From Leifsonia sp. Root112D2 (GTDB lineage Bacteria; Actinomycetota; Actinomycetes; Actinomycetales; Microbacteriaceae): a stretch of 24,000 nucleotides of DNA. The position numbers were made by a program, and so were the translations under genes. The notes under the pieces are model-generated. The model was not told where the DNA came from, searched no databases, and was given only the letters and a program-made list of their open reading frames with translations. The DNA is taken from positions 1,148,641 through 1,172,640 of the forward strand of contig NZ_LMCU01000001.1 in assembly GCF_001424905.1 (NCBI RefSeq), given 5' to 3'. Of the stretch, positions 2-16,414 are shown piece after piece. Every line of letters begins with the position of its first letter. Position 1 is the first letter of the stretch.

Positions 2-415
2 CTGATGGGCGCATACATCAGCCGCTGGAGCGCATCCACCCGCGACCAGGTCGCGGCGATCTACGAGATGTTCCCCGTGCTCGGAGAGATGAAGGGCCGC
101 CTCGCCGGCGCGCTGTCGGGCGGGCAGCAACAGATGCTCGCCATCGGTCGCGCGCTCATGTCGAAGCCCAAGCTGCTCGTGCTCGATGAGCCGTCGATGG
201 GGCTGTCGCCCAAGCTGGTGGACGAGGTGCTCGCGGTGGTGCAGCGCCTCAACAGCACGGGCATGAGCATCCTGCTGGTGGAGCAGAATGCCAAGCTCAC
301 CTTCGAGGCAACCACGCAGTGCTACGTGATGGAGAACGGCGAGATCGTCATGGACGGCCCCGCCGATTCTCTGCGCCACGACCCGCGCGTGCGCCAGATC
401 TACCTGGGGATATAA
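2..415 (+). CDS. livF: Branched-chain amino acid ABC transporter ATP-binding protein (LivF-like), C-terminal part; 5' end lies outside the window
   Basis: Frame is open to the left window edge. ABC signature LSGGQQQM, Walker B LLVLDEPSMGL, H-loop region LLVEQN and a LivF-type tail RVRQIYLG. Stop TAA at 413-415. Confidence 0.85.
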   Translation: MMGAYISRWSASTRDQVAAIYEMFPVLGEMKGRLAGALSGGQQQMLAIGRALMSKPKLLVLDEPSMGLSPKLVDEVLAVVQRLNSTGMSILLVEQNAKLTFEATTQCYVMENGEIVMDGPADSLRHDPRVRQIYLGI

Positions 416-435
416 CGAACACCGAGACCCGGGCG

Positions 436-1689
436 ATGCCGCTGTGGGCGGGGAGAACTTTCGCACTGCTCGGAATAGTTCTTCTCGCCCTTAACCTGCG
501 CACCGCCGTCGCGGCGCTCTCGCCGATCGTCGCGATGATCAACAACGACGTTCCGCTGGACAACGCCGGGCTCGGCGTGCTCGGAATGCTGCCCCCGGTG
601 GCCTTCGCCGCCTCCGCTCTTGTGGCGCCGATGCTGGCCAAGCGCGTGGGCCTGGAGCGCCTCGTGGTGCTCAGCATTGCGGTGGCCGTGGTTGGCCACC
701 TGCTCCGGGCGGTTTCTGGATCGTTCGTGGTGCTGTTCGTGGGGTCGCTGCTCGTGTTCGTGGCCATGGGGGTGGGCAACGTCGTGCTGCCGCCTCTGGT
801 CAAACGGTATTTTCCCGACCGGATCGGCATGGTCACCTCGCTGTACGCGACGATCAATGCGGTGGGCATGGCTGTTCCCCCGCTCGTGGCCTTTCCTCTT
901 GCGGATGCCGCCGGCTGGCGGCTCTCGCTCGGAATCTGGGCGGTACTGGCGGTGCTCGCACTGTTCCCGTGGATCGGTGTGCTCGTGCAGAGCCGGCGCG
1001 AGCGGGCCGAGCGCGTGGAGCGGGAGGCGGGAGCAGAGCCGGAACCGGTGGCATCCGCTGCACTGCACAGCCAGATCTGGCGTTCGCGCACCGCGTGGGC
1101 TCTTGCGCTGGTCTTTGCCGTGGTTTCGTTTCACGTCTATACGTTGTTCGCGTGGTTGCCGCGGATGCTGGTGGAATCGGCCGGGCAGACGCCCGCCACC
1201 GCCGGTGCGCTGCTCGGTCTGTACTCCGCCCTGGGCTTTCCGGTGGGAATCATCGTGCCCATGATGATCGTGCGCATGCGCAATGTCTCGTGGATGATCT
1301 ATCTGGGCGCGGTGGGCTTCGTGCTGGGCTATCTGGGCTTCATCTTCGCGCCGTCGCTCGCGCCCTGGCTGTGGATCGTGCTGATCAGGGTGGGATCGGT
1401 CATGTTCCCGGCCTGCCTCGTGCTGATCAACCTGCGGTCGCGCACCCCCGTTGGCTCGGCCGCCCTGAGCGGATTCGTGCAGGCCGTCGGCTATGCGCTC
1501 GCGGCGCTCGGCCCGCTTCTGGTGGGCCTGTTGTATAACGCTGACACCGGATGGCTGGGTGCGTACCTGCTGCTCATCGCCACGGTGGTGGTCGCCTTCG
1601 TCGCCGGATCCATGCTGCGCACGCCACGATTCGTCGAGGACGAACTGCGCGAGGTCGCCCGCACGCACCAATCATCGACCCCGCTCTAG
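436..1689 (+). CDS. MFS transporter (CynX / cyanate-permease-like subfamily)
   Basis: Taken from track ORF 319..1689. ATG at 436 avoids overlap with livF. About 12 hydrophobic segments. The N-terminus LLGIVLLALNLRTAVAALSPIV...GLGVLGMLPPVAFA is typical of CynX-type MFS. GC3 is high. Confidence 0.8.
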   Translation: MPLWAGRTFALLGIVLLALNLRTAVAALSPIVAMINNDVPLDNAGLGVLGMLPPVAFAASALVAPMLAKRVGLERLVVLSIAVAVVGHLLRAVSGSFVVLFVGSLLVFVAMGVGNVVLPPLVKRYFPDRIGMVTSLYATINAVGMAVPPLVAFPLADAAGWRLSLGIWAVLAVLALFPWIGVLVQSRRERAERVEREAGAEPEPVASAALHSQIWRSRTAWALALVFAVVSFHVYTLFAWLPRMLVESAGQTPATAGALLGLYSALGFPVGIIVPMMIVRMRNVSWMIYLGAVGFVLGYLGFIFAPSLAPWLWIVLIRVGSVMFPACLVLINLRSRTPVGSAALSGFVQAVGYALAALGPLLVGLLYNADTGWLGAYLLLIATVVVAFVAGSMLRTPRFVEDELREVARTHQSSTPL

Positions 1690-1720
1690 AACGGTCGACC
1701 GCACGAGAAAGGTTGTTTTC

Positions 1721-2605
1721 ATGGCACACCGACAGATCGGCATCGCCCACCTGACGATGCTGCAGCTTACGCCGCCCGAGCTGGTGGCAACGGCCGCCGA
1801 GGCCGGCTACGACTTCGTGGGTGTGCGCGTTGCGGTGGCCACCGCAGGCGAGACGCCGTATCCGATGCAACCGGGTTCGGCGATGTCGAAAGAGACGCTC
1901 GCCCGACTCGACGACACGGGGCTGCGCGTGCGCGACATCGAGTTTCTGGTGCTCGACGCATCCGCGGGCCCGGCGCTCTGGATGCCCGCGCTCGAGGCCG
2001 GGGCGGCACTCGGCGCGAGTTCGGTGAGCGTGGTCGGCGGCGATGACGATCTCGGCCGACTCGCGGACACCCTGGCCCGGCTCACCGAGGATGCGCGGCC
2101 GTATGGCATCCTTCCCACGCTGGAGCCGATCAGCTACCAGGTCGTGCGTTCGATTCCGGATGCCGCGCGCCTCGCCCGCGGTGCCGGCGCCGCTATTCTC
2201 GTGGATGCGCTGCACCTGCAGCGCTTCGGCGGCAGCGTCGAGCAGGTTGCCGCTCTCGAACCGGAGCTGGTTCCCATTCTGCAGATTTGCGATGCGCCGC
2301 TGGCGACGCCGGAGCATTTGGATCCACCCGCGACGATGCCGCAGGGAATGACCACCAATGGTTCGGTTCTGCAGCTCGAGGCGCGCGCATTGCGCCTCGT
2401 GCCGGGAGAGGGTGAGTTGCCGCTACGCGAGCTGATCGCCGCGGTCGCCGCCGACACCCCCATCAGCGTCGAGGTTCCCAACGCCACCCTGAGCGCGAGA
2501 ATGTCGCCCGTCGATTTCGTTCGGATGAATCTGGTGGCGGTACAGGCATTGCTCGCTGAGCGCGGCGAGTCGCTCGGGCAGGCCGGGGGAGAGGGCGCAC
2601 GGTGA
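1721..2605 (+). CDS. Xylose-isomerase-like TIM-barrel protein (sugar phosphate isomerase/epimerase family; possibly a dehydroshikimate-dehydratase-like enzyme, unproven)
   Basis: Taken from track ORF 1493..2605. ATG at 1721 is preceded by GAGAAAGG. The ~294-aa size and the alternating beta/alpha pattern (IGIAHLTM..., YDFVGVR, LEPISY, ILQICD) fit the AP_endonuc_2-like fold. The stop overlaps the next start (GTGA). Confidence 0.7.
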   Translation: MAHRQIGIAHLTMLQLTPPELVATAAEAGYDFVGVRVAVATAGETPYPMQPGSAMSKETLARLDDTGLRVRDIEFLVLDASAGPALWMPALEAGAALGASSVSVVGGDDDLGRLADTLARLTEDARPYGILPTLEPISYQVVRSIPDAARLARGAGAAILVDALHLQRFGGSVEQVAALEPELVPILQICDAPLATPEHLDPPATMPQGMTTNGSVLQLEARALRLVPGEGELPLRELIAAVAADTPISVEVPNATLSARMSPVDFVRMNLVAVQALLAERGESLGQAGGEGAR

Positions 2606-4437
2606 TGATCGCTGATGAGCCGGGTGCGGCATCCGCCCCTGCAGGGCCGCGCACCGCAGCAATCGACTGTGACGTTCTCGTCATCGGCTCGGGGGCCGGC
2701 GGGCTGTCTGCTGCGGTGACGGCCGCGTTCCACGGGCTGAAGGTGATAGTCGTGGAGAAAGAGGAGAAGTGTGGAGGCGCCACCGCATTCTCCGGTGGCT
2801 GGATGTGGGCGCCGCGTAATCCGCTGGCTGTCGCCGACGGCGTGAAGGAGGATATCGAGCTGCCCCGCGAGTACCTGCGGCAGCGCCTCGGCGAGAACTT
2901 CGATGCGGCCCGGGTCGACGCATTGCTCGAGGCGGTGCCGCACATGGTCGGCTTCTTTCATACGAAGACGAAGCTGCAGTTTGTGCCCGGCAGCTCGATC
3001 TCCGACATCTACGGCAAGACGCCCGGTGCCGGAACCGGGCATCGTTCGGTGGCGCCCAAGCCGATCAACGCGCGTCGGCTTAGTAAGACGGTGCGCGCGA
3101 CGATGCGTCGCCAGCTCTACGAGACCTCGTTTCTGGGCATGGGCATCATGGCCGGCCCTGATCTGCGGGCCTTTCTGTTCGCGATGCGCGGCGACGCGAA
3201 GGCGTTGTGGCATGCAACGTGGCGCGTGGGGCTGCACCTCTGGGATCTTCTGACCCATCACTACGGGCTGCAGCTCGTCAACGGCACGGCACTCATCGGC
3301 CGTCTCATGCAGTCGGCCGAAAACCTGGGCGTCGACATCCGGGTGTCGTCGCCCGCGCTGCGGCTGACGACGGATGCCGGGCGTGTCACGGGCGCGGTCG
3401 TCGCCTCTCCCAGAGGTGGGCCGGGCGACGAGCAGGGCGGCGAACTGAGCATCCACGCCCGCCTTGGTGTCGTGCTGGCCACCGGCGGCTTTCCGAACGA
3501 TGTGGCACGACGCAAACAGTACTTTCCCCGCGTGCCTACCGGCGAGGAGCACTGGACGCTGGCGCCGGCCGGCACCTCGGGTGACGGCATCACGCTGGGC
3601 GAGTCGGTCGGTGGGCACCTCAATCACAATGTGGCGGCACCGGCGGCGTACTGCCCCGTCTCACTCGTTCACTATCGCAACGGCCGAGTCGGCGTCTTTC
3701 CACACATCATGGACAGGGGCAAGCCGGGGGCCATCGGCGTGCTGAAGAACGGCAGGCGCTTCGTGAACGAGGCCAACGGCTACCACGACTACGTGCTCGG
3801 CATGCTCGCCGCGGTTCCCGAGGGTGAGCCCGTCGAGTCGTGGCTCGTTGCCGACCACACCTTTCAGCGGCGGTATCCGCTGGGCATGTCGAAGCAGCGG
3901 CCGGTTCCCACCTTCCCGTACCTGCGCAACGGTTACCTGACGAAGGGCCGCACCATCGAGGAACTCGCGCGCAACTGCGGCATCGACCCTGCCGGTCTCG
4001 CCGCGACGGTCGTCGAGTTCAACGCGAACGCCCGCCGGGGCGCCGACCCGCTCTTCGAGCGTGGCGAAACACCGTTCAACCGCTACGCGGGTGACCCCAC
4101 AGTGAAGCCGAACCCCTCACTGGCACCGATCAAGACCGGCCCGTTCTATGCCGTCAAGGTGCTCCCGGGCAGTTTCGGTACATTCATGGGGCTCGAGACG
4201 GACGCGCGTGCGCGCGTTCTCGGCGACGGCGGCAAGCCGATCGCGGGGCTGTATGCCGTCGGCACCGACCAGGCCAACGTGATGGGCGGCCACTACCCGG
4301 CCGGCGGCATCAACATCGGCCCCGCCATGACCTTCGGCTATGTCGCCGGACGCGACCTTGCCGGCGCTACCGCCTACGAGGACGGCCGAGACGCTGCGGT
4401 GGAGAATGGTTCGCATGGATCTTCAGCTCAGCGGTAA
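2602..4437 (+). CDS. FAD-dependent oxidoreductase, FAD_binding_2 / KstD (3-ketosteroid dehydrogenase)-like flavoprotein
   Basis: GTG start at 2602 overlaps the upstream stop. N-terminal dinucleotide fold DVLVIGSGAGGLSAAVTAAFHGLKVIVVEKEEKCGGATAFSGGWMW. The C-terminal motif GLYAVGTDQANVMGGHYPAGGINIGPAMTFGYVAG is typical of the family. Confidence 0.85.
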   Translation: MMIADEPGAASAPAGPRTAAIDCDVLVIGSGAGGLSAAVTAAFHGLKVIVVEKEEKCGGATAFSGGWMWAPRNPLAVADGVKEDIELPREYLRQRLGENFDAARVDALLEAVPHMVGFFHTKTKLQFVPGSSISDIYGKTPGAGTGHRSVAPKPINARRLSKTVRATMRRQLYETSFLGMGIMAGPDLRAFLFAMRGDAKALWHATWRVGLHLWDLLTHHYGLQLVNGTALIGRLMQSAENLGVDIRVSSPALRLTTDAGRVTGAVVASPRGGPGDEQGGELSIHARLGVVLATGGFPNDVARRKQYFPRVPTGEEHWTLAPAGTSGDGITLGESVGGHLNHNVAAPAAYCPVSLVHYRNGRVGVFPHIMDRGKPGAIGVLKNGRRFVNEANGYHDYVLGMLAAVPEGEPVESWLVADHTFQRRYPLGMSKQRPVPTFPYLRNGYLTKGRTIEELARNCGIDPAGLAATVVEFNANARRGADPLFERGETPFNRYAGDPTVKPNPSLAPIKTGPFYAVKVLPGSFGTFMGLETDARARVLGDGGKPIAGLYAVGTDQANVMGGHYPAGGINIGPAMTFGYVAGRDLAGATAYEDGRDAAVENGSHGSSAQR

Positions 4438-5229: not shown

Positions 5230-6126
5230 CTACTGGGCCAGTTCGCGCTCGGCGATCAGTTCGAGAAAGTGGGCGCGCATCCGTGCCGCGTCGGGTTCGA
5301 TTCCGGTGATCAGGCGCATTCCCGCGACGGCCTGTCCCACGTTCATGCGGCCGCCGTCGAGGGTGCGCAGGCCGTGGGCACGGGCGTTCAGCAACACCTG
5401 GGTCTCGATGGGAAAGTAGACCACGTCGGCGACCCAGGCATCCGCCCGCAGCCGCGCAACGTCGAACGCGACACCGGGGTGATTGGTCATGCCGAGCGGG
5501 GTGGCGTTGATGACGCCGTCCGCACGGGCGAGCGTACCGGCCACCTCGTCGGGCCCGTTCACGAGCACCTCGCGATCGGGGAAAAGCTCTCGCAGCCTCT
5601 GAGCGAGCCCCTCGACGCGCTCGGGCACGAGATCGGTGAGCGTGAGCTGCTGCGTGCCGAGCGCGAGCATCGCATAGGCGGAGGCCGAGCCGGCGCCGCC
5701 ACCGCCGAACTGCACGACGTTCTCGAGGGCGGCATCCGGAAGCCCGTCGAGAACGCCGTCACGAAAGCCCACCCAGTCGGTGTTGTAACCGATGAAACGG
5801 CCGTCGCGGATGAGAACGAGGTTGACCGCTCCGAGGCGTTCGGCGTCGACATCCACCTCATCGAGGTACTGCATGACGAGCTGTTTGCACGGATGCGTGA
5901 TGTTCAGCGCCGAGAAGCCCTCGTCGCGTGCCTCATGGAGCAGCCGCCCGACGCTCTCGGCGGGCTCGTTCAGCTCGAGCAGGTCGAGCAGCCGGTATTC
6001 GTAGTCGAGGCCGAGTTCGTGGGCCTCGCTCTCGTGCAGCGGCGGCGACAGCGAGGGGCCGATGCCCTCGCCGATGAGGCCGACCAGGTAGGCGGTGCTC
6101 GGGACTGAAGCGTTTTCGGCGTCCAC
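5230..6126 (-). CDS. aroE: Shikimate / quinate 5-dehydrogenase (AroE/YdiB family)
   Basis: C-terminal 298 codons of the 770-aa track ORF. GTG start at 6126-6124 with GAAGGG ~9 nt upstream. Motifs LIGEGIGPSLSPPLH, NITHPCK, GYNTDWVGF and the Rossmann segment FGGGGAGSA. Confidence 0.85.
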   Translation of the reverse strand: MDAENASVPSTAYLVGLIGEGIGPSLSPPLHESEAHELGLDYEYRLLDLLELNEPAESVGRLLHEARDEGFSALNITHPCKQLVMQYLDEVDVDAERLGAVNLVLIRDGRFIGYNTDWVGFRDGVLDGLPDAALENVVQFGGGGAGSASAYAMLALGTQQLTLTDLVPERVEGLAQRLRELFPDREVLVNGPDEVAGTLARADGVINATPLGMTNHPGVAFDVARLRADAWVADVVYFPIETQVLLNARAHGLRTLDGGRMNVGQAVAGMRLITGIEPDAARMRAHFLELIAERELAQ

Positions 6127-6351
6127 GGTGACTGACCCTTCAAAAGAACGGATGTTGTCGATAGCATAGCAAGAAGAGTTCAACTGACGAATAAATGTAC
6201 GCACAACGAACACGACCGCGGAACGCTCATCGAACCGCCACTCCAGGCGAGCCGGTAAGCGCAGCACGGGCCGACACCGATATGCTCGCGGCAGCCGAGC
6301 TCGACGGATAATCTGGATCGACTTCGAGGAATGGAAGTAGGGCGTCCTGCA
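6127..6351. promoter_or_regulatory. Divergent promoter/operator region between aroE-like and double-aroQ genes
   Basis: 225-bp non-coding gap, visibly AT-richer than its flanks. It contains the tandem ATAGCATAGC (6161-6170), a TTC-N7-GAA dyad (~6179-6191) fitting a T-N11-A LysR-type box, and the hairpin GCTCG-N7-CGAGC (~6283-6299). No site can be assigned with certainty. Confidence 0.4.
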
Positions 6352-7290
6352 ATGACACGACCACGCGTTCTGGTGCTGAACGGACCCAACCTCAATTTTC
6401 TCGGGCGGCGTGAACCGGCGCTCTATGGCTCGGTCACTCTCGACGCCGTCACCGAATCGCTCGCGGGCTTGGCGGCCGGGCGCGGCGTGAGTCTGGACTG
6501 CCGCCAGAGCAATAGCGAAGCTGTGCTGATCGATGCGGCGCAGGAGGCGATGAGCGACTTCGATGCCGTGATCATCAACGCGGGTGGGCTCAGCCACAGC
6601 TCGGTGGCGCTGCGCGACGCGCTCGCAATGCTGCCGGTGCCGGTCGTCGAGGTGCACGTCACGAACATTCACGCTCGCGAGGAGTTCAGGCACCACTCCT
6701 TCATCTCGGATGTCGCTGCCGCCGTGATCGTCGGCGCGGGAACGAACGGCTACCTGCTGGCGCTCGAGCACGTGCTGTCGCTGCTGCCAGCTGCTCAGCC
6801 GGCTGCGCATCCGGGCACGGATGCCGGTGCAGCCGGCGGGTCGCAGGCATCCGCTCTGGTTCTCAGCGGACCGAATCTCAACTTTCTGGGGCGGCGCGAA
6901 CCGGGTCTCTACGGTGATGTCACCCTCGACCAGATCGGCGAGCGAGTAGCGACCGAGGCGACGAGGCTCGGCATGACGGCGGACTTTCGGCAGAGCAACA
7001 GCGAGTCTGAGCTCGTGGATGCCGCACAGGAGGCGATGAGCGCCTTCGACGCCGTGATCATCAACCCCGCCGGGCTGTCGTTCACCTCTATACCGTTGCG
7101 CGATGCGCTGGCGATGCTGCCGGTGCCGGTCATCGAGGTGCACATCACGAACATCATGGCGCGCCCGGCCGAGTACCTGCATCACTCCCACATCTCGCCG
7201 ATCGCCACCGCGGTGATCATGGGTGCGGGCGCGCACGGTTACGAGTTGGCGCTGCAGCAGGCGGCGCATCTCGCCGCGGAGAAGCACTGA
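6352..7290 (+). CDS. aroQ: Tandem-fused double type II 3-dehydroquinate dehydratase (two DHquinase_II modules in one polypeptide)
   Basis: Taken from track ORF 6331..7290. ATG at 6352 gives MTRPRVLVLNGPNL; the ATG at 6331 has its SD directly abutting. Module 1: LNGPNLNFLGRREPALYG, INAGGLSHSSVALRDA, EVHVTNIHAREEFRHHS. Module 2: LSGPNLNFLGRREPGLYG, INPAGLSFTSIPLRDA, EVHITNIMARPAEYLHHS. A Pro/Ala/Gly linker joins them. Confidence 0.85.
   Translation: MTRPRVLVLNGPNLNFLGRREPALYGSVTLDAVTESLAGLAAGRGVSLDCRQSNSEAVLIDAAQEAMSDFDAVIINAGGLSHSSVALRDALAMLPVPVVEVHVTNIHAREEFRHHSFISDVAAAVIVGAGTNGYLLALEHVLSLLPAAQPAAHPGTDAGAAGGSQASALVLSGPNLNFLGRREPGLYGDVTLDQIGERVATEATRLGMTADFRQSNSESELVDAAQEAMSAFDAVIINPAGLSFTSIPLRDALAMLPVPVIEVHITNIMARPAEYLHHSHISPIATAVIMGAGAHGYELALQQAAHLAAEKH
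6364..7263 (+). repeat. Intragenic tandem duplication, period 486 nt (162 codons), two copies
   Basis: Nucleotide-level similarity between the copies, e.g. caggaggcgatgagcg at 6541 and 7027, and GGA of the GPN motif at 6382 and 6868. A one-codon insertion in copy 2 lies near 7165. Confidence 0.85.
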
Positions 7291-7305: not shown

Positions 7306-8196
7306 ATGGAACTGCGGTGGATCGAGGCGTTCATCGCTGTCGCCGAGGAACTGCACTTCGGCCGGGCCGCGCAGCGGTTGGGGCTGGCGCAGTCGCCGCT
7401 GAGCCAGACGATCCGGCGGCTGGAGCGCGAGCTCGGCGCTCCACTCTTCGAGCGCAGCACGCGCTCGGTCGCCCTCACCGGTGCCGGTGTCGCGTTTCTG
7501 CCGCACGCCAGAAAGATGCTCGGTGAGCTCGACCTTGCGCATCGATCCGTGCGCCAGATCGAGCAGGGCGAATACGGTCGGGTCACCATCGGCTTCTCAG
7601 GCGCGCTGAACCACCTCACGCTGCCGCCGCTCACCCGGGCCGCGCGCGGCCGGTATCCGGGGATCGAGCTGACCCTGGTCAACCAGCTGGTCACCGAGGA
7701 TGCGATCAGGCGGCTGCACAACGGCGAGATCCACTTGGCCTTCGTCGGCCTGCCGCTCGAGTCACCGCCCCTGGCAACTCGTGCGATCTCGAGGGAGCCG
7801 CTGGGTGCGACGCTACCCTCCGACCATCCGCTGGCCCGTCGTGCCGAGTTGACGGTGGCCGAGCTCGAAGGCGAGGATTTCGTCTCGCTGCCGGTGAGCC
7901 GGGGCTCGACGGTGGGCGAGAACCTCGTGCGGGCGTGCCTCGGGGCCGGGTTTCGGCCGCGAATCGTTCAGGAGATCGTCGACCCGTACACCGTGCTCTC
8001 GTTCGTTGCCGCCGGCGTCGGCATCAGCCTCATGCCGCAGTGCATGCAGCCGATCATGCCCGCCGGCTCAGTGTTCATTCCGTTGCGCGGCGACGTTCCC
8101 GTTCAGGAGGCGGGCCTCGCCTGGAACCCCGACGATGTCTCGCCGGCCCTCGCCTCGATTCTCGCGCTCGCCGAGGAGATCCTGCCCACGCCCTAG
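7306..8196 (+). CDS. LysR-family transcriptional regulator
   Basis: N-terminal wHTH MELRWIEAFIAVAEELHFGRAAQRLGLAQSPLSQTIRRLERELGAPLFERSTRSVALTGAG, followed by a ~200-aa effector domain. It lies 15 nt downstream of the aroQ stop. Confidence 0.9.
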   Translation: MELRWIEAFIAVAEELHFGRAAQRLGLAQSPLSQTIRRLERELGAPLFERSTRSVALTGAGVAFLPHARKMLGELDLAHRSVRQIEQGEYGRVTIGFSGALNHLTLPPLTRAARGRYPGIELTLVNQLVTEDAIRRLHNGEIHLAFVGLPLESPPLATRAISREPLGATLPSDHPLARRAELTVAELEGEDFVSLPVSRGSTVGENLVRACLGAGFRPRIVQEIVDPYTVLSFVAAGVGISLMPQCMQPIMPAGSVFIPLRGDVPVQEAGLAWNPDDVSPALASILALAEEILPTP

Positions 8197-10154
8197 TGCA
8201 ACGCGGCGGCGAGCTGCTGCGCGGTGTCGTAGCCGCTGAGTATGGCGTTGCGGATGGTGGCCGGCGACTTCTCGATGGCGCTGCCCGCTGCGAGAACCGC
8301 ATGCCGGATGCCCAGCCCTGCAGCAAGCTCGCCTTCGCTCTCGGCCGGCACCGTGCCGTGCGAGATCAGCAGCGGTCCCGGGGCGTCGAGCCACGCATCC
8401 GTGCCGTCGGCGTCGGTGATTCGAATGCGGCGCTCGGCAATTTCGGCGATGGTGCTGCCCAGGAGAATCCGCACATTCGGGTTCGCCATCAGGCGCGGCA
8501 GGGCCAGAATCTTGGCCCGGCGCCCCGAATCGGGCGCGAGCTGCTCCTGCTCGCCCACCAGCAGCACGGCCGTTCCGCGCGCAGCGAGCGTGTCGGCCAC
8601 CGACATGGCCACGCCGTCCGCGCCCCAGATGGTGCAGGCGGCGAGGGGCTCGTCCAGTTCGTGCGTCTCGAGCCAGTTCCGAACATCCATCACCGGTGAC
8701 TCGCCCGCCACGACGGTTTCGCTCAAGGCGGGCGCCTGCGGTCGGATGCCGCCGGTGGCCAGCACCACGGCATCCGGCTTCAGTGCCGTCAACAGCGACT
8801 CATCGACGTGTGTGCCGAGCGAGACGGTCACGTTCAGTCGCTCGAACTCGCGGGCCGACCAGTCGAGAAAGCGGTGAAAATCGGGGGTGGACTTCATCCG
8901 TGCCGCCTCGGCCATCTGGCCGCCGAGTGCCGCGCGCTCGTCGGCGAGTGTCACATCCGCCCCCGCCAGCGCGAGCTCGCGGGCCAGCGTCAGGCCGGCC
9001 GGGCCCGCACCCGCGACCACGACGCTGCTGCCCGTGCGCACCGTGGGGGTGGCGAGCGGAACGCGCCCGCGACCGACCGTGGGGTTGACGGTGCAGCCGA
9101 CGGGGCCGACGCCGAGATTGTCGATGCAGACGTTGCAAGCGATGCACGGGCGGTACTCGCCGCCCTCAAGGCAGGCGGTCGCGAACGTGGGGTCGGCGTG
9201 CAGGGCGCGGGCCAGACTCACGAAGTCTGCGGTGCCCTCGGCCAGCACTGTCTCGATGATCTCGGGGCTGTTCAGCCGCCCGGCCATGCCCAGTGGCTTG
9301 CCGAAGCGGCGGTATGCGGCGGCGTACTCGCTGAGCAGACCCGGCTGCCATTCGCCCGACTGCACGATCCACTCGCCGGCCTCGTAGCTGCCGGCCGAGA
9401 GGTCGAGAAAGTCGAGTGCGGCGAGGTCGGCGCGTGCCACGATGGCCAGCGTCTGCTCGGCGGTCAGCCCGCCCTCGGTGCCTTCGAGCACAGAAATGCG
9501 GATGCCGAGGGGCGTGTTCGGCGCGTTCTCACGCACCGCGGCAATCACCAGATTGAGAAACAGCGCGGAGTCGGCGAACTCGTCGCTGCGGTGGTTGTAC
9601 AGCGGCGACATGAACTGGTGCACGAGGTAGCCGTGCCCGCCATGGATGCTCAGCACGTCAATGCCGGCCGCAACACAGCGAGCCGCCGCAGTGCCGTATT
9701 CGGCGGCGAGTTCGTAGATCTCGGCCGTGGTCAGCTCACGCGGCATCTCGCCGCCGGCCACCGCGCACGGCACCGGTGAGGGCGCGACATTCGGATGCCC
9801 GCTCACCGTGCTCTGCGCGGTGCGGCCACCGTGGTTTAGCTCACAACCGACGAGCGCGCCCTCGGCGTGCATCGCGTCGGCGAGGTGGCGCAGGCCCGGA
9901 ATGCAGGAATCGTCGTGGGCACCGAGTTGGTGAGTGCGGCCTTTGCCATCGGCGCGCACGTAGGTGGCCTCGGCCATGACCAGGGCCACGCCAGCGGCGG
10001 CACGCTGCACCAGGTAGTCCTCGTAGACATCCGTCATGTGGCCCTCGGTGTCGCAGTAGTTGCGCTCCATCGGGGCCGAGACGAGCCGGTTGCGCAGCGT
10101 GAGGCGGCCCAGCGCAAGGGGCGATGCCGTGATGTTCGTGTGTGGCTGCGTCAT
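8193..10154 (-). CDS. FadH / BaiCD-type NADH:flavin oxidoreductase (OYE-like TIM barrel + 4Fe-4S + FAD/NAD(P) domain; 2,4-dienoyl-CoA-reductase family)
   Basis: OYE-like N-terminus LRNRLVSAPMERNY...GCELNHGGR. Cys cluster CIACNVCIDNLGVGPVGCTVNP. Second dinucleotide fold VVVAGAGPAGLTLARELALAG. The ATG overlaps the upstream stop (ATGA at 10151-10154). Confidence 0.9.
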   Translation of the reverse strand: MTQPHTNITASPLALGRLTLRNRLVSAPMERNYCDTEGHMTDVYEDYLVQRAAAGVALVMAEATYVRADGKGRTHQLGAHDDSCIPGLRHLADAMHAEGALVGCELNHGGRTAQSTVSGHPNVAPSPVPCAVAGGEMPRELTTAEIYELAAEYGTAAARCVAAGIDVLSIHGGHGYLVHQFMSPLYNHRSDEFADSALFLNLVIAAVRENAPNTPLGIRISVLEGTEGGLTAEQTLAIVARADLAALDFLDLSAGSYEAGEWIVQSGEWQPGLLSEYAAAYRRFGKPLGMAGRLNSPEIIETVLAEGTADFVSLARALHADPTFATACLEGGEYRPCIACNVCIDNLGVGPVGCTVNPTVGRGRVPLATPTVRTGSSVVVAGAGPAGLTLARELALAGADVTLADERAALGGQMAEAARMKSTPDFHRFLDWSAREFERLNVTVSLGTHVDESLLTALKPDAVVLATGGIRPQAPALSETVVAGESPVMDVRNWLETHELDEPLAACTIWGADGVAMSVADTLAARGTAVLLVGEQEQLAPDSGRRAKILALPRLMANPNVRILLGSTIAEIAERRIRITDADGTDAWLDAPGPLLISHGTVPAESEGELAAGLGIRHAVLAAGSAIEKSPATIRNAILSGYDTAQQLAAALH

Positions 10155-11812
10155 CGCATCCGCTCCTTCTGGGGTGTTTCGGCTTCATCGGCACGGTACT
10201 CGCTCAGGTATTCACCCACACTGAAGGCTCGGGTGATTGCCGAGCCCAGGGTGGCACCGCCGCCGGGGTAGGCGCCGCGAAAGACCGTCGCCGAGCAGTT
10301 TCCTGCCGCGAAGAGTCCCTCGATAGCGTGACCGTCACGCCCGAGCATGCGCCCGTGCGCGTCGACCTGGATGCCGCCGGCCGTGCCGAGCACGCCGGCG
10401 TGAATCTCGACGGCATAGAACGGGGCCGTGGACAACGGGGCGAGGCAGGGGTTGGGCAGATTGTTCGGATCGCCGAGGTGCCTGTCTTCGGGCGCATCGC
10501 CGCGGCCGAATGCGCTGTCGTGCCCGGTCGCGGCATCCGCGTTGAAGGTGGCAACAGTGGCCTCGAGGCCGGCGCGATCGATGCCGCAGAGCTCGGCGAG
10601 GGCACCCAGGCTGTCGGCCCGCAGCATCCACTCCTCGGCGATTCCCGGCGTGGAGCCGGCCACCGAATAGCACTGCAGGTAGCCGGAATCGAAGACGAGC
10701 CAGGCCGGATTGTTCTGTTGCCGGCTCGTGCCCGGATCGACGTTGGCGAACACGCGCGTGAGGTCGTGGTAATTCAGCGCCTCGTTCACGAAGCGTCGCC
10801 CGCGGGCGTTCACGGTGATGGAGCCCGGCAGTGTCATCTCGACATTGGCCATGCGGCCGGAGGGCTGGTCGTCGTAACGCTGCGTGGGTGCGGCGATGAC
10901 CGGCACGCCCCAGATCGCCGTCATCTCATCCATCGCCGCGCCGGCGCCGAGGGCGAGCATCAGCCCGTCACCCTCATTGCTCGGTGCGCTGATCGGGGTG
11001 ATCGGCATTGGCAGCAGAGCTTCGCGAAGGTGTCTGCTCCACTCGAAGCCACCGGATGCGACGACCACGTTCGTCGCTGCCACGCTGGCCTCGCGGTCGT
11101 TCCCAGCGTCGTTCACGGTGAGGCGCCACCCGCCCGATTCGTCCCGCTCCAGCGCGGTCACCCGGGCATCGCGCGCGAGGTCGATTCCGCGGTCGATGGC
11201 CGAGGCCAGAAGGGCCGCCACGAGGGCGCCACCCATGGTGCGGATGCCGGCCTCGCGACGTTCGCGCAGCATCCGCTCGTCGACCGGGGCACCCCGCAGC
11301 GCATCGCGTTCGTTCATGCTGATCGGTGGAAAGTAGCTGGGCGGGCGAATGGCCTCGGCCAGACCGGGGACCGCCGCCGGGTCGAACGGGTCATTGTCGA
11401 GACCGCGACCCACGGCCGCTCCCGGCCAGTCCAGGTGATAGTCGGGCCGGGCGAGCGGGGTGAAGCTGACCCGCGTCTTGTCGACCAGATAGCGCACGGC
11501 GCGGGGCGCGGTACCGATGTACCAGCGCATCTCCGCTTCACTCATGCGCGGGCCGGCCGCTGCGTTCAGATAGGCGAGGGCTGCGTCATCGCTGTCGGCA
11601 AAGCCGGCCTCGTTCATCAGATGGTTGCACGGCGCCCACATCACGCCGCCGGAGAGCGCCGTCGTTCCCCCGAATTTCGCAGCCTTCTCCAGCACGAGAA
11701 CGCGGCGGCCTCCGTCGGCGGCACGGATCGCAGCGACGAGCCCTGCCGCTCCGCTGCCGATCACGACAACATCGTACGAGGCACCGAGCTCGGTCAGCGG
11801 GCATCCGATCAT
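10151..11812 (-). CDS. FAD-dependent oxidoreductase, FAD_binding_2 / KstD-like flavoprotein (paralog of 2602..4437)
   Basis: YDVVVIGSGAAGLVAAIRAADGGRRVLVLEKAAKFGGTTALSGGVMWAP, and the C-terminal GLFAAGNCSATVFRGAYPGGGATLGSAITRAF. The ATG overlaps the upstream stop (ATGA at 11809-11812). Confidence 0.85.
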   Translation of the reverse strand: MIGCPLTELGASYDVVVIGSGAAGLVAAIRAADGGRRVLVLEKAAKFGGTTALSGGVMWAPCNHLMNEAGFADSDDAALAYLNAAAGPRMSEAEMRWYIGTAPRAVRYLVDKTRVSFTPLARPDYHLDWPGAAVGRGLDNDPFDPAAVPGLAEAIRPPSYFPPISMNERDALRGAPVDERMLRERREAGIRTMGGALVAALLASAIDRGIDLARDARVTALERDESGGWRLTVNDAGNDREASVAATNVVVASGGFEWSRHLREALLPMPITPISAPSNEGDGLMLALGAGAAMDEMTAIWGVPVIAAPTQRYDDQPSGRMANVEMTLPGSITVNARGRRFVNEALNYHDLTRVFANVDPGTSRQQNNPAWLVFDSGYLQCYSVAGSTPGIAEEWMLRADSLGALAELCGIDRAGLEATVATFNADAATGHDSAFGRGDAPEDRHLGDPNNLPNPCLAPLSTAPFYAVEIHAGVLGTAGGIQVDAHGRMLGRDGHAIEGLFAAGNCSATVFRGAYPGGGATLGSAITRAFSVGEYLSEYRADEAETPQKERMR

Positions 11813-12861
11813 GGTCGGGATGCCGGCATGTCGATGGCCACCTTGCCCACCCGCTCGGTGCGTGAACGCATGGTCTCGAAGGCCGTGCCCAGATCGTCGA
11901 AGTCGAAGCGGTGCGTGATGAGACTGCGGGCCTCGCTCTGGTGCAGGTCGATCATCTCGAGGGCCTCACCGATGAGATTCATGCTGTTGCGGCTGCCGAT
12001 CAGATCGACCTCCTTGATGGGCACGACGCGCATGGAGAGCTGCGCCTCGCGGTCGGAGATGCCGACGAGAACGATGCGTCCCGTGGTCGTGACGATGCCG
12101 AGCGCGTTCTGCAGCGAGGAGGGCTGGCCTGTCGCCTCGATCACGAGGGAGGGGCCGTCACCGTCGGTCCACTCGGAGATCATGGCGGCCGTCTGCGCGG
12201 AGGGGAACTCGCTCGCCGGATCGATCAGAATCGTGTCGAGCGCGCCGAACTGGCGCGCGAAGGCGCAGCGTTCTTCCACGGTGTCCGCCGCGATGACGTG
12301 CACGCCCAAATCGCTGAGATACATGGTGGCGAGCAGGCCGATGGGGCCGCTGCCCAGAACCAGGGCCTTCTCTCCGGCGACGGGGCGGCCGCGGTTCACC
12401 GCCTGCATGGCGATGCTCATGGGCTCGCACAGCGGGGCGATCTCCAGGGGCAGATTGGCCGGAACCGGGTAGAGCTTCTCGAGCGGGATCGACATGAGCG
12501 TGGCCAGCGCGCCGTCTTCGTAGCATCCGTAGATCGACATGTGCGTGCACGCATTCACACGGCCGGCACGGCAGGCGTAGCAGTTGCCGCAGTAGAACAT
12601 GGGGGAGACGGCGACGCGATCGCCGACAGAGAACGGCGAGCTCGCGGCATCCGCCTCGGTCAGTTGCTCGATGACGCCGACGAACTCGTGGCCCTGGATG
12701 ATGGGCAGATCGGTGGCGTAGTCGTCCTCCCAAATGTGCAGATCCGTGCCACACAGCGTGACGTGCCGGATGCTCACCAGCGCGTGACCGGCGGAGGCCT
12801 CCGGATCGGGGCGGTTCTGGTATTCGATTCGCTCTTTGGAGACGGTGACAGCTGCGAGCAC
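11809..12861 (-). CDS. Zinc-dependent medium-chain alcohol/polyol dehydrogenase (MDR family)
   Basis: Taken from track ORF 11809..12951. GTG at 12861-12859 lies 4 nt after the YciI stop. Motifs CGTDLHIW, GHEFVGVIE, structural-zinc CGNCYACRAGRVNAC and Rossmann LVLGSGPIGL. Confidence 0.85.
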   Translation of the reverse strand: MLAAVTVSKERIEYQNRPDPEASAGHALVSIRHVTLCGTDLHIWEDDYATDLPIIQGHEFVGVIEQLTEADAASSPFSVGDRVAVSPMFYCGNCYACRAGRVNACTHMSIYGCYEDGALATLMSIPLEKLYPVPANLPLEIAPLCEPMSIAMQAVNRGRPVAGEKALVLGSGPIGLLATMYLSDLGVHVIAADTVEERCAFARQFGALDTILIDPASEFPSAQTAAMISEWTDGDGPSLVIEATGQPSSLQNALGIVTTTGRIVLVGISDREAQLSMRVVPIKEVDLIGSRNSMNLIGEALEMIDLHQSEARSLITHRFDFDDLGTAFETMRSRTERVGKVAIDMPASRP

Positions 12862-12865
12862 GGGG

Positions 12866-13168
12866 TCAGCGGGCAATCTCGCCGAAGGCGATGTTCCACT
12901 CGGCGATCTCGCGGCGGGCGACGACGCCGTTCTGCATGAACGGCTCGCCATCCATCAGACGGGTGACGTCGTCGATCGATTCGCCGCTGACGATGAGCAG
13001 CGCGCCGGCAGCCACGCCGCTCGCCTCGTCGGCGAGCACCCGGCCCGAGAGAAGCAGGCGCTTGGCTTCGAACTGTGCGGTGAGGAACTGCATGTGCGCC
13101 TCGCTGTACGGCGCTTTGGCGGCCTCGGAATTCTCGCCATATGTGTATCTGATCGCGAAGGTGGCCAC
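12866..13168 (-). CDS. YciI-like small protein (dimeric alpha/beta barrel)
   Basis: 100 aa. GTG start with a strong GGGAGAGGA SD upstream. The pattern H-x2-F...LLLSGRV...GALLIVSGESIDDV...DPF-like EPFMQNGV...W is typical of the YciI family. Confidence 0.7.
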   Translation of the reverse strand: MATFAIRYTYGENSEAAKAPYSEAHMQFLTAQFEAKRLLLSGRVLADEASGVAAGALLIVSGESIDDVTRLMDGEPFMQNGVVARREIAEWNIAFGEIAR

Positions 13169-13324: not shown

Positions 13325-14443
13325 TCAGAACAGCGTTGCATCCAATTCGGGTAATGCGGAGTCAGCGCTTGTGAGCAGGTCGAGGAACGCGACATTGATA
13401 AAGAGGCGCTCGCGCCCCATCTTCATGTCGTGAAGCGCTCCGGCATCAACGAGCGCATTCAACCACCCTGTGGCGGTCGGTCGGGAGACCCCGCATCTGT
13501 CCATGACATTCGAGATTCGACAGTAGGGCTGCTCGAACATGACGTCGAGAAGGTCTTTGTTTGCGCCACCAGAGGTGACGCGACGTATCTGTTCTTGTGC
13601 GCGCACCTGGAGCTCATGAATCGCATCGATTTTCCTTACCGTCGATGTGGCGGTTTGACGAAGCCCTTCAATGATGAAGAGAACCCATTCTTCCCAGGCC
13701 CCGTGCGCAGTTACTTCCAGCAGCAAGCGGTAATACTCTGATCTGTTTTCAATCACATATCTCGAAAGATAGAGGATTGGCTGATTCAGCACCCCGGCAT
13801 CGATGAGGAGCAAAACGTTGAGGATGCGTCCCGTTCGGCCATTGCCATCGGCGAATGGGTGAATCGCTTCGAACTGATAGTGCGCAAGCGCCATTCGCAC
13901 AATGGGGTCGAGGCCAGGGGACGAGTGGATGAATTGCTCCCACGCCGAGAGTTTGTCCCGGATGAGGTTTTCACCCGTTGGCGGCGTATATATCGCCTGT
14001 TTGGTCACGGGATTTCCGATAAATGTGCCCGGAAGACGACGGAGTCCCATGTCTCTCGAGTGAATGTTGGAACATACCTCGATGGCCGTTGTCACCGACA
14101 GCGGTCGTGTCGCCAAACTCTCGATCCCGCTGAAGAGCGCGGAACGATATCGCAACGTTTCCTTTGTTTCGGGGCTTGTCGCGGCTGCTTCATCGTCCGC
14201 GAATCGGAAAAGGTCGTCGGCTGTCGTGACGATGTTCTCGATCTCTGAACTCGCCTGGGCTTCGAGGAGCGGAATGGCGTTGATGAGGACTGTCGGGTTG
14301 GGAATCCTTCGGGCCGCTTGATCGAGGGACGCGAGAGCCGCCCGTGCCTCGACTGTGGCTTTGAGTACGCTTTTCGTTTCGATGTCGCCGGCCGGCGGCA
14401 GGGGAGGCAGCTCGTTATAGGGCTGGTTCGGATGCCACGTCAT
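13325..14443 (-). CDS. Fic family protein (class II; Fic_N + Fic core + C-terminal winged helix), AMPylase-type
   Basis: Canonical Fic motif HPFADGNGRTGR (13826-13861). N-terminal inhibitory-helix motif SSEIEN, i.e. [ST]xxxE[GN] (14234-14251). The Fic_N start is MTWHPNQPYNELPPLPP. ATG at 14443 is preferred over the TTG at 14449. Confidence 0.9.
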   Translation of the reverse strand: MTWHPNQPYNELPPLPPAGDIETKSVLKATVEARAALASLDQAARRIPNPTVLINAIPLLEAQASSEIENIVTTADDLFRFADDEAAATSPETKETLRYRSALFSGIESLATRPLSVTTAIEVCSNIHSRDMGLRRLPGTFIGNPVTKQAIYTPPTGENLIRDKLSAWEQFIHSSPGLDPIVRMALAHYQFEAIHPFADGNGRTGRILNVLLLIDAGVLNQPILYLSRYVIENRSEYYRLLLEVTAHGAWEEWVLFIIEGLRQTATSTVRKIDAIHELQVRAQEQIRRVTSGGANKDLLDVMFEQPYCRISNVMDRCGVSRPTATGWLNALVDAGALHDMKMGRERLFINVAFLDLLTSADSALPELDATLF

Positions 14444-14473
14444 ATGCAAACTCTATGACCACATTCGAGAAAC

Positions 14474-14632: not shown

Positions 14633-16414
14633 TCAGATCGACTGGCGGTAGCCGAAGAACTCGTGGTCGTTGTTGTAGCCGCCAAGACCGCCGCCGATCT
14701 CCGCGAAGTCTTCGACGAACTCGATGGCCTGTATCCATTTGACCATCTTGAATCCGAGCTGGGTCTCGTTGCGCAGCCGTAGGGGCGCCCCGTGGCCGAA
14801 CGACAGCGGTGCGTCGTTCATGTCGTAGGCGAGCATGGTCAGGCGATAGCTCATCTGCTCGATGGCTTGGGCGTCGTAGTAGAGGCCGCCCTCCGGGCCG
14901 AGGGCGAAGGAGTAGAAGATCACCCATTTGGCTTCGGGCTTCGGCTTCACGGTGTCCAGGATGGTCTGCATGGAGATGCCGCCCCACTTGGCAATACCCG
15001 ACCAGCCCTGAATACAGAAGTGCTGGGTGATCTGCTCGTGATGCGGCAGGGCGCGCAACTGCTCGAGAGTCAGTTCCACCGGATGCTCGACCAGGCCGTG
15101 CACGGTGAGCTTGTAGTCGGCGAAGTTGCCGGCCTGAAGCCGCTGATAGTCGTCGGTGTCAGGGTATTTGCCGTTGTGCCAGAAGTACGGCGAAATGTCG
15201 TCCTCCGTGTACTGGCCGGGCTTGGAATCGATGTGCTCGAACAGCCGCTGAGCGGGCCCGATCAGCGCGTATCCGACCTTCTGCACCACGCGTGGATGCC
15301 GGTAGGTGAACGGGGTTGCCGCAACCCAGGCGACGACTACGACCACCATCGACGCCGCAAAGATCCAGAATCCGAGCCACGATTCGGAATCCTGGGAGGC
15401 GTACATGTGGTTCAGATTGCGCAGGGCCCCCGTGGTCAGCACGAGCGCAACGTGAACGACGATGAAAATGATGAACCAGCACAGGATCAGGAAGTGTGTC
15501 GACCGCGCGAACTGAATGCTGAAGACCGAACTGACCTTGCGAAAGCGAGTGGAGAGCACGGGCGACATTCCCAGCCCTGTGATGAGGGCGAGCGGCGCCG
15601 CGATGAAGACGGTGACGAAGTACGCGATGAGCTGCAGGCTGTTGTAGTTGCTCCAGCCCGACTCGGTGGGCCAGTCCAGCGAGAGGTATTGGATCGCAAC
15701 CGAGATCGCGTTCGGAATGACGTCCCAGCGCAGCGGCACCAGTCGCATCCATTGCCCCGTCGTGAACAGCAAGACGAAGAAGACGATGCCGTTGGCCAGC
15801 CACAGCGTGTCGATGCCGAGATGCCACCAGCGAGCCAGGCCGATCGAGTGCCTGCGGCCCGGGAGTCCGACGCCGTTCGGCAGGGTGATCGAGTCTTCCT
15901 TTGCCGTGTAGAGGGGGTTGGTGGGAACGGGCTTCTGAATTCGAAACCACTCTTTGCCCGGTGTGGAATGCCTCGTCCAGTAGAGCCGGGGGTGGTCGGA
16001 GAGGATCGTGACTCCGGAACGGATGATGAAGATCATCAGGAACATGTTCAGGAAGTGCTGCCAGCCGATCCACGCCGGAATCCCTACCGGTGCGTTGTCC
16101 GGCAGTTCGGACGTTCCGGGATACGTGCGGATGAAATCGTGCACGGCTGGAAGCCCTCGAATCCCCTGGGCCACGGCCACCCCGATGAGCAGCAGGACGA
16201 GCCCGATCGGTATCAACCAGAGCAGGTTGAACCACTTGCTGTGACCGATGCGCACCCGCGGCGCCACGCCGTATTGTGCGGGCACGCCTCCGGCCCAGTC
16301 CTCGTCGACGACGGTATAGCGCGTGCGATCGAGTTCCGCTCGAAAACTCGCGCGCACTCCCTCAGCGCCAATATCCGAGGCGGGCAGTGGCCGATCCTTC
16401 GAAGGAGGCTCCAT
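14633..16414 (-). CDS. Membrane-anchored molybdopterin-dependent oxidoreductase (six-TM b-type-cytochrome-like domain fused to a MsrP/YedY / sulfite-oxidase-family Moco domain)
   Basis: Six hydrophobic segments at approx. aa 61-85, 115-138, 198-221, 260-283, 305-329 and 346-369. The C-terminal ~190 aa carry HFCIQGWSG (YedY-like Cys motif), MLAYDMNDAPLSFGHGAPLRL and GFKMVKWIQAIEF. Confidence 0.8.
   Translation of the reverse strand: MEPPSKDRPLPASDIGAEGVRASFRAELDRTRYTVVDEDWAGGVPAQYGVAPRVRIGHSKWFNLLWLIPIGLVLLLIGVAVAQGIRGLPAVHDFIRTYPGTSELPDNAPVGIPAWIGWQHFLNMFLMIFIIRSGVTILSDHPRLYWTRHSTPGKEWFRIQKPVPTNPLYTAKEDSITLPNGVGLPGRRHSIGLARWWHLGIDTLWLANGIVFFVLLFTTGQWMRLVPLRWDVIPNAISVAIQYLSLDWPTESGWSNYNSLQLIAYFVTVFIAAPLALITGLGMSPVLSTRFRKVSSVFSIQFARSTHFLILCWFIIFIVVHVALVLTTGALRNLNHMYASQDSESWLGFWIFAASMVVVVVAWVAATPFTYRHPRVVQKVGYALIGPAQRLFEHIDSKPGQYTEDDISPYFWHNGKYPDTDDYQRLQAGNFADYKLTVHGLVEHPVELTLEQLRALPHHEQITQHFCIQGWSGIAKWGGISMQTILDTVKPKPEAKWVIFYSFALGPEGGLYYDAQAIEQMSYRLTMLAYDMNDAPLSFGHGAPLRLRNETQLGFKMVKWIQAIEFVEDFAEIGGGLGGYNNDHEFFGYRQSI

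Follow-up and report, generated by a model that had tools for sequence, protein, structure and literature searches.

Type II dehydroquinase, a textbook dodecamer, is a target for antibiotics, and the roles of its active-site residues have been worked out one by one. Catabolic representatives of the family include the product of Corynebacterium glutamicum qsuC, which belongs to the qsuABCD cluster with its LysR-type regulator QsuR, and the fungal QutE. The known type II enzymes assemble as homododecamers, tetramers of trimers with 23 symmetry (PMC7144000). Single-domain AroQ/AroD proteins, such as those of Mycobacterium tuberculosis, Streptomyces coelicolor, Helicobacter pylori and C. glutamicum, contribute subunits of ~150 aa to these particles, whereas the protein described here carries two modules in one chain. 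It is encoded at positions 6352-7290 (forward strand) of a 24,000-nucleotide stretch of the genome of the soil and root actinobacterium Leifsonia sp. Root112D2 (contig NZ_LMCU01000001.1, positions 1,148,641 to 1,172,640), which is referred to as a whole as the window. The first module is a canonical dehydroquinase. The second keeps all of its catalytic residues, and the fixed changes that set it apart from the rest of the family lie only in the sub-pocket for the C5 hydroxyl of the substrate.

The tandem gene is a single unbroken open reading frame (ORF) encoding 312 aa. The open frame itself spans 6331-7290 (forward strand), where an in-frame upstream ATG at 6331 would yield 319 aa; the ATG at 6352 is the start in the NCBI record and in the orthologues. 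The product is 100% identical to WP_327063329.1 from Leifsonia sp. Root112D2, named "type II 3-dehydroquinate dehydratase", and this plain annotation is the one that proteins of the tandem kind currently carry. An initial annotation of the window had proposed that one ORF holds two DHquinase_II modules offset by 486 nt, and had expected a profile search to return two PF01220 hits. Both expectations hold: PF01220 matches the whole protein in two stretches (E = 3.6e-101, 334.9 bits), each half by itself matches the NCBIfam type II dehydroquinase (aroQ) models, and ungapped comparison of the DNA of the halves gives 72% identity at an offset of exactly 486 nt and at most 38% at all other offsets from 300 to 700. 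The protein sequences of the two modules are 66% identical. Direct reading of the sequence also places the linker where it had been put, at about 6787-6846, and the chain is laid out as follows.

6364-6786, forward strand: module 1, a canonical type II dehydroquinase (TIGR01088, 183.8 bits; cutoff 169.85).
6787-6846, forward strand: linker PAAQPAAHPGTDAGAAGGSQ, 20 residues, rich in Pro, Ala and Gly (direct reading of the ORF).
6847-7287, forward strand: module 2, dehydroquinase-like; its catalytic residues are all kept and its C5-hydroxyl sub-pocket is remodelled.

About 20 orthologues (P0001-P0020, together clade A) have the same two-module chain, with 57-100% identity and lengths of 293-328 aa. 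They come from independent assemblies, both of isolates bearing the names Leifsonia, Microbacterium or Parafrigoribacterium and of many metagenomes. Their linkers vary in sequence and length and are always in frame; they are 0-59% identical between orthologues, and the linker has a predicted local distance difference test score (pLDDT) below 50.

The modules were mapped residue by residue onto M. tuberculosis (Mtb) numbering; residue counts and fixed differences refer to 19 clade A orthologues, and family frequencies to 140 single-domain representatives. Module 1 has P11, N12, R19, Y24, N75, H81, D88, E99, H101, T103, R108 and R112, so that every catalytic and substrate-binding residue is there and its description as canonical is justified. 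Module 2 keeps P11, N12, R19, Y24, N75, D88, E99, H101, S/T103 and R108 in 19/19 orthologues, among them the lid Arg/Tyr, the IIN Asn, the RDA Asp and the EVH Glu/His pair, all of which had been read as retained. The catalytic set (Arg19, Tyr24, Asn75, Asp88 acting in trans, Glu99-His101, Ser/Thr103 and Arg108) is present in both modules. The two ligands of the C5 hydroxyl, His81 and Arg112, are present in module 1 and are replaced in module 2 by Phe81 and Leu112 (19/19). The His to Phe and Arg to Leu changes of the initial annotation are therefore real and in frame, at the following codons.

6595-6597, forward strand: CAC, the module 1 His equivalent to Mtb His81 (direct reading and alignment).
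7081-7083, forward strand: TTC, the module 2 Phe at the His81 position (Phe in 19/19 orthologues).
6688-6690, forward strand: AGG, the module 1 Arg equivalent to Mtb Arg112 (direct reading and alignment).
7174-7179, forward strand: TAC CTG, the module 2 Tyr-Leu at Phe111-Arg112 (Tyr in 18/19, Leu in 19/19 orthologues; the Leu codon CTG is 7177-7179).
7156-7158, forward strand: Met codon of module 2 at the place of His106 (a fixed difference between the modules, 18/19 orthologues).

Only six fixed differences lead from module 1 to module 2: Gly to Ala at 77, His to Phe at 81, His to Met at 106, Phe to Tyr at 111, Arg to Leu at 112 and Val to Met at 126. Positions 81, 111 and 112 are near-invariant elsewhere in the family (His in 131/140, Phe in 124/140 and Arg in 133/140, respectively), and position 77 is free to vary (Gly 94 : Ala 46 among the single-domain representatives). 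Two further changes had initially been counted as divergence of module 2. The change from NAGG to NPAG is present, but it is ordinary family variation and was rejected as a functional lesion: the active S. coelicolor enzyme has NPAAYSHTS, and NPGG occurs in module 1 of half of clade A. In the change from EEFRHHS to PAEYLHHS, the Arg to Leu replacement is general, whereas the one-codon insertion (ARPAEY) is confined to the subclade P0001-P0011, P0012-P0019 reading AR-EEYLHHS.

What do the replacements at 81 and 112 mean for the site? The two residues had been thought to anchor the C1 carboxylate or hydroxyl, and this assignment does not stand: both His81 and Arg112 hydrogen-bond the C5 hydroxyl of the substrate, and Arg112 also helps to depress the pKa of Tyr24 (PMC6011038). 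The carboxylate and the C1 hydroxyl are held by Asn75, the backbone of 102/103, Ser/Thr103 and His101 (PMC6011038), and module 2 retains every residue that holds them. None of the chemistry-essential residues whose loss marks a pseudo-enzyme is missing from module 2, in which only binding or electrostatic residues are altered.

The initial annotation had left two options for module 2, a pseudo-enzyme scaffold or a site for a different substrate. Equal purifying selection on the two modules, 19/19 retention, focal changes and convergence together favour an altered ligand and make a scaffold the less favoured option. On this reading, which we hold tentatively, module 2 may well bind a dehydroquinate-like ligand and would probably catalyse the elimination, with altered recognition at C5. 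It would still use its lid Arg/Tyr and its His/Glu pair, because these are kept in 19/19 orthologues while the partner modules of other tandem proteins have lost the lid or catalytic residues. The strongest competing explanation, possible but rather doubtful, is that module 2 is a non-catalytic pseudo-enzyme, which builds the oligomer and gives Asp88 in trans while the activity lies entirely in module 1. Yet a scaffold needs neither the flexible, exposed lid (Arg19, Tyr24) nor His101, Glu99, Asn75, Arg108 and Ser/Thr103, all kept 19/19, and the replacements are specific, with Phe, Tyr and Leu fixed, rather than the product of drift.

The origin of the second module was traced in neighbour-joining (NJ) trees of the separated modules, with 100 bootstraps. 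In clade A, modules 1 and 2 are monophyletic and form sister groups (97/100), a topology also obtained in a second NJ tree; the modules of a second group of tandem proteins, clade B, are monophyletic in 94/100. Because the modules are sisters in each clade, the clade A and clade B fusions are independent internal duplications rather than fusions of pre-existing paralogues. A separately acquired paralogue was considered as the source of module 2 and rejected, since module 2 groups with module 1 in 97/100 bootstraps and with single-domain Phe81 proteins in 1/100.

The ratio of nonsynonymous to synonymous substitution rates (dN/dS) was estimated by pairwise Nei-Gojobori comparison of six orthologous genes. 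Between the window and locus L087, the least saturated pair (dS ~0.5), modules 1 and 2 have ratios of 0.096 and 0.094, respectively, and the other pairs with estimable dS give 0.05-0.2 for both modules. Invariant columns number 59 in module 2 and 68 in module 1. Because its dN/dS matches that of module 1 and its catalytic residues are kept 19/19, module 2 is not decaying; it is under as strong a constraint as module 1, and it has diverged at focal positions rather than diffusely. The equal dN/dS also argues against a partner without catalytic function.

Phe81 is found outside the fusions as well. Stand-alone proteins with Phe81 and His112 are abundant; they make up six 50%-identity representative clusters (P0177, P0197, P0203, P0205, P0218 and P0262), and a sample of this subfamily comprises 118 sequences (P0268-P0385), one of them from Bradyrhizobium sp. 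S69 (P0368). Like module 2, these proteins combine the NPAGxSF motif and Phe81 with a residue other than Arg at 112, usually have Tyr111, and keep all catalytic residues intact. Unlike module 2, they stand as single domains and carry His, not Leu, at position 112; they also show no specific kinship to it. Phe81 is never paired with Arg112 in the sampled representatives. Because the stand-alone subfamily joins module 2 in just 1/100 bootstraps, the pairing of Phe81 with a non-Arg112 residue has arisen at least twice independently. Its recurrence in stand-alone proteins, which cannot scaffold a fused partner, again speaks against a pseudo-enzyme. The subfamily is uncharacterised, as is the fused protein, and the gene context of the stand-alone proteins (loci L092, 8001-8444, and L094, 8001-8441) proved uninformative.

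How unusual is the two-module chain? An exhaustive HMMER search through 1.84 billion representatives at 50% identity yielded 9149 matches to the family, and nine two-module representatives were found among the best 150, which were examined for this property. One of the nine, P0005, stands for clade A, and another, P0024, for clade B (~38-41% identity). In four others (P0136, P0139, P0169 and P0267) the N-terminal module is canonical and the C-terminal one strongly degenerate, and in P0170, P0200 and P0235 it is the N-terminal module that is degenerate and the C-terminal one that is canonical. In both kinds the degenerate partner has lost the lid and most catalytic residues. Clade B (P0021-P0026; locus L003, 8317-9243), a duplication separate from that of clade A, has D88S and H101F fixed in its C-terminal module, with His81 and Arg112 kept. 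Its locus encodes a tripartite ATP-independent periplasmic (TRAP) transporter, a citryl-CoA-lyase-like protein, an acetolactate-synthase-like thiamine pyrophosphate enzyme, an aldehyde dehydrogenase and two triosephosphate isomerase (TIM)-barrel proteins, and holds no obvious quinate cluster. P0027 and P0030, both truncated in the second module, seem to represent a third tandem duplication, in which the linker is rich in Lys, Glu and Ala. A scan of a genome collection with the full protein gave only single-domain aroQ loci among the matches listed. No description of tandem, fused or pseudo type II dehydroquinases was found in the literature searched, which is not proof of absence, and a literature search on RifJ found nothing relevant. 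RifJ was considered as a lead; aminodehydroquinate bears its amino group on C5. Tandem proteins of the type II family are rare, yet they recur. While the family, its chemistry and the pathway are well known, the literature searched does not describe a covalent tandem whose second site has been selectively remodelled. The initial view that the architecture is rare and undescribed is thus upheld.

The other tandem PF01220 proteins resemble the Leifsonia protein in having two modules per chain (~275-310 aa), one of them canonical. They differ from it in that the partner module has lost either catalytic residues (D88S and H101F in clade B) or the lid. They therefore show what a mere partner domain looks like and serve as an internal control. 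The pseudo-enzyme explanation gains some support from the several tandem families, of independent origin, in which a degenerate module clearly serves as the partner; however, the strongly degenerate partners lost the lid and the clade B module 2 lost His101 and Asp88, whereas module 2 of clade A kept them all. Together, the tandem families form a graded natural series that leads from a duplicated enzyme to a pseudo-enzyme partner.

An AlphaFold2 single-chain model (22-sequence alignment; mean pLDDT 79.5, predicted template modelling score 0.83) gives both halves a flavodoxin-like fold with the β-α pattern and leaves the linker disordered, with low confidence for the lids and for the loops at 106-112. 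The best Foldseek matches in the PDB are all type II dehydroquinases, with target-normalised template modelling scores (TMt) of 0.82-0.92 and one module aligned each time. The fold and motifs of the single-domain AroQ/AroD enzymes are common to both modules, with ~50% identity to the Mtb and C. glutamicum chains and TMt of ~0.9; module 2 differs from them in having neither His81 nor Arg112 and in having Tyr in place of Phe111. It would take six covalent two-module chains to fill the twelve positions of the dodecamer, and they could not do so with full 23 symmetry. Because linked pairs break the full tetrahedral symmetry, the particle would have to be a lower-symmetry hetero-assembly of modules 1 and 2. 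On combinatorial grounds, mixed trimers would be unavoidable if the module pair spans the twofold edges of the tetrahedron.

The neighbourhood of the gene was compared with that of its orthologues (loci numbered L001 and so on). In the window the following genes surround it.

319-1689, forward strand: major facilitator superfamily (MFS) transporter, 67% identical to the MFS gene adjoining the fused gene in L001.
2602-4437, forward strand: KstD-family flavin adenine dinucleotide (FAD) desaturase, which passes the generic model NF009476 'FAD-dependent oxidoreductase' and falls below the cutoff of the ChcC2 model.
5230-6120, reverse strand: divergent AroE-family protein, like shikimate/quinate dehydrogenases (PF08501; NF009201, 374 bits, cutoff 235).
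7306-8196, forward strand: LysR-family regulator, directly downstream of the fused gene, 77% identical to its positional counterpart in L090.
8193-10154, reverse strand: FadH/old yellow enzyme (OYE)-type flavin oxidoreductase, a conserved neighbour, 73% identical in L090.
10151-11812, reverse strand: second KstD-family FAD desaturase, best NCBIfam match the ChcC1 model, below its cutoff.
11809-12951, reverse strand: zinc-dependent alcohol dehydrogenase (Zn-ADH), a conserved neighbour, 77% identical in L090.

The island also holds a short-chain dehydrogenase/reductase gene. The AroE-like protein scores 265 bits, below the cutoff, with the quinate/shikimate dehydrogenase model NF010631. ChcC2 is the model of a 4-oxocyclohexene-carboxylate dehydrogenase; the two KstD-family desaturases, together with the FadH/OYE-type flavoenzyme, hint at aromatisation or reduction of alicyclic keto acids beyond the textbook quinate route. 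A TIM-barrel ORF at 1493-2605 (forward strand), xylose-isomerase-like (PF01261, E = 1e-10), overlaps the MFS gene by ~200 nt, and its true start is probably later. It was considered as a dehydroshikimate dehydratase and rejected, having neither a matching NCBIfam or PDB entry nor any likeness to the QuiC-like genes of the orthologous loci. Further along, between the catabolic island and the next block, lies the gene of a Fic/DOC-family protein (13325-14449, reverse strand) that has a Fic_N domain and a SoFic-like C-terminal domain. The gene at 14633-16414 (reverse strand) combines a cytochrome b561-like domain (PF01292) and a molybdopterin oxidoreductase (PF00174), an MsrQ/MsrP-like pair in one chain.

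In L001, L006, L088/L089, L090/L091, L095 and L096 the fused gene adjoins a QuiC/QsuB-like dehydroshikimate dehydratase of 625-641 aa (called as 552 aa in L095, whose assembly is fragmented), which has AP_endonuc_2 and Glyoxalase_5 domains and scores 571 bits with NF042435, below the equivalog cutoff of 1200. A Zn-ADH of 328-350 aa usually lies directly upstream of the fused gene, in the same orientation (L090, 5057-6043; L001, 8936-9988; L088, 8963-9949; L096, 2284-3270; L087, 1597-2589). It may be a non-orthologous quinate dehydrogenase or an enzyme acting on another cyclitol. The orthologous loci also carry genes for ATP-binding cassette and MFS transporters, IclR and LysR regulators, PobA-like proteins, thiolases and CoA-transferases, and L090 shares the LysR-OYE-Zn-ADH block of the window at 73-77% identity. 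Neither the QuiC/QsuB-like gene nor the 328-aa Zn-ADH was found within the 24 kb of the window. These loci resemble qsu/qui-type clusters in having a transporter, a dehydroshikimate dehydratase, a dehydrogenase and a LysR or IclR regulator. They differ in that the dehydroquinase of those clusters is single-domain and that a Zn-ADH, not an AroE-family QsuD, is found in most orthologous loci here; the window differs further in having no QuiC-like gene in its 24 kb. Overall, the setting points to hydroaromatic catabolism, from quinate or shikimate to protocatechuate.

Taken with this setting, the gene would encode a catabolic type II 3-dehydroquinate dehydratase that arose in a lineage of Microbacteriaceae through tandem duplication within the gene. 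Module 1 would act as an ordinary dehydroquinase, turning 3-dehydroquinate (from quinate) into 3-dehydroshikimate, which in the orthologous loci would be passed by the QuiC/QsuB-like dehydratase into the protocatechuate/β-ketoadipate route. In module 2 a dehydroquinate-like ligand would still be bound and elimination by the lid Tyr and His most likely kept, with recognition at C5 altered. It might then take a hydroaromatic compound without a free C5 hydroxyl or with that hydroxyl placed differently, or, alternatively, dehydroquinate itself with different kinetics.

A number of observations weigh against an active second site. Module 2 alone reaches 160.0 bits with TIGR01088, under the equivalog cutoff of 169.85, and passes the subfamily models NF003807 (163.7 vs 130 bits) and NF003805 (153.2 vs 146 bits). 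Loss of Arg112 could cripple catalysis in module 2 through the pKa of Tyr24 (PMC6011038) even with the other residues intact, and Asp88 could be kept in module 2 only to complete neighbouring module 1 sites in trans. No candidate alternative substrate for module 2 emerged, and the conserved neighbours fit plain quinate/shikimate catabolism, for which one dehydroquinase is enough. Finally, clade A itself contains P0020, in which module 2 is wrecked (lid deleted, H101S) and module 1 intact. P0020 shows that the chain can exist with its second site defunct, although it lies on a 1.2-kb contig and may reflect an assembly problem. The loss of both C5-hydroxyl ligands, including the Arg112 that helps to activate Tyr24, the score under the TIGR01088 cutoff, the wrecked module of P0020 and a pathway that requires only one dehydroquinase all speak for module 2 as an inactive partner. 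The dehydroquinase of Candida albicans Aro1 is of another kind, a type I enzyme with an aldolase fold within a pentafunctional biosynthetic protein, of unrelated fold and lineage, and is the domain of that protein that has lost activity. Of the five domains of Aro1, only four are active (PMC9074039).

It is also conceivable, though improbable, that module 2 has become a ligand-sensing or regulatory site, binding for example the aromatic product or a pathway metabolite and acting allosterically on module 1. Its pocket is indeed more hydrophobic and aromatic (Phe81, Tyr111, Leu112, Met106), active sites of the family accept planar aromatic carboxylates (Mtb enzyme with citrazinic acid, 3n8k, among the Foldseek matches), and module 2 is strongly conserved. 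However, no precedent for allostery in the family was found in the literature searched, retention of the full acid/base machinery would be left unexplained, and the idea is purely inferential. That two ordinary adjacent aroQ genes were merged by a sequencing or assembly error can safely be dismissed: the low-complexity, GC-rich linker is the sole ground for suspicion, whereas the ORF is continuous, the fusion is preserved, with in-frame linkers that differ, in about 20 orthologues and again in another, independent clade, and the proteins that cluster at 90% identity or more, all of 312 aa, were found in four separate sources, one NCBI genome, one JGI contig and two Logan assemblies. A hidden stop or frameshift in the linker is thereby excluded.

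The preferred reading, a second site that still handles a dehydroquinate-like ligand with altered C5 recognition, can be carried one step further. Phe81 with a residue other than Arg at 112 would then mark a second specificity class of type II dehydroquinase-like dehydratases, evolved at least twice and acting on a C5-altered dehydroquinate analogue, and the fused protein would be bifunctional. This bolder proposal seems unlikely. If it were true, the substrate could be deoxy, amino or acylated at C5, or an isomeric (regio- or stereo-) keto-quinate made by the co-operonic Zn-dehydrogenase, and the fused protein would form a lower-symmetry, hetero-dodecamer-like particle with two dehydratase activities for hydroaromatic catabolism.

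For the family, the natural covalent dimer is a ready-made experiment on broken symmetry in a 23-symmetric assembly. Taken together, module 2 and the convergent stand-alone Phe81 proteins point to a second way of configuring the active site, at its C5-hydroxyl sub-pocket, that has so far gone unrecognised; this could mean that hydroaromatic catabolism includes a substrate as yet unknown.

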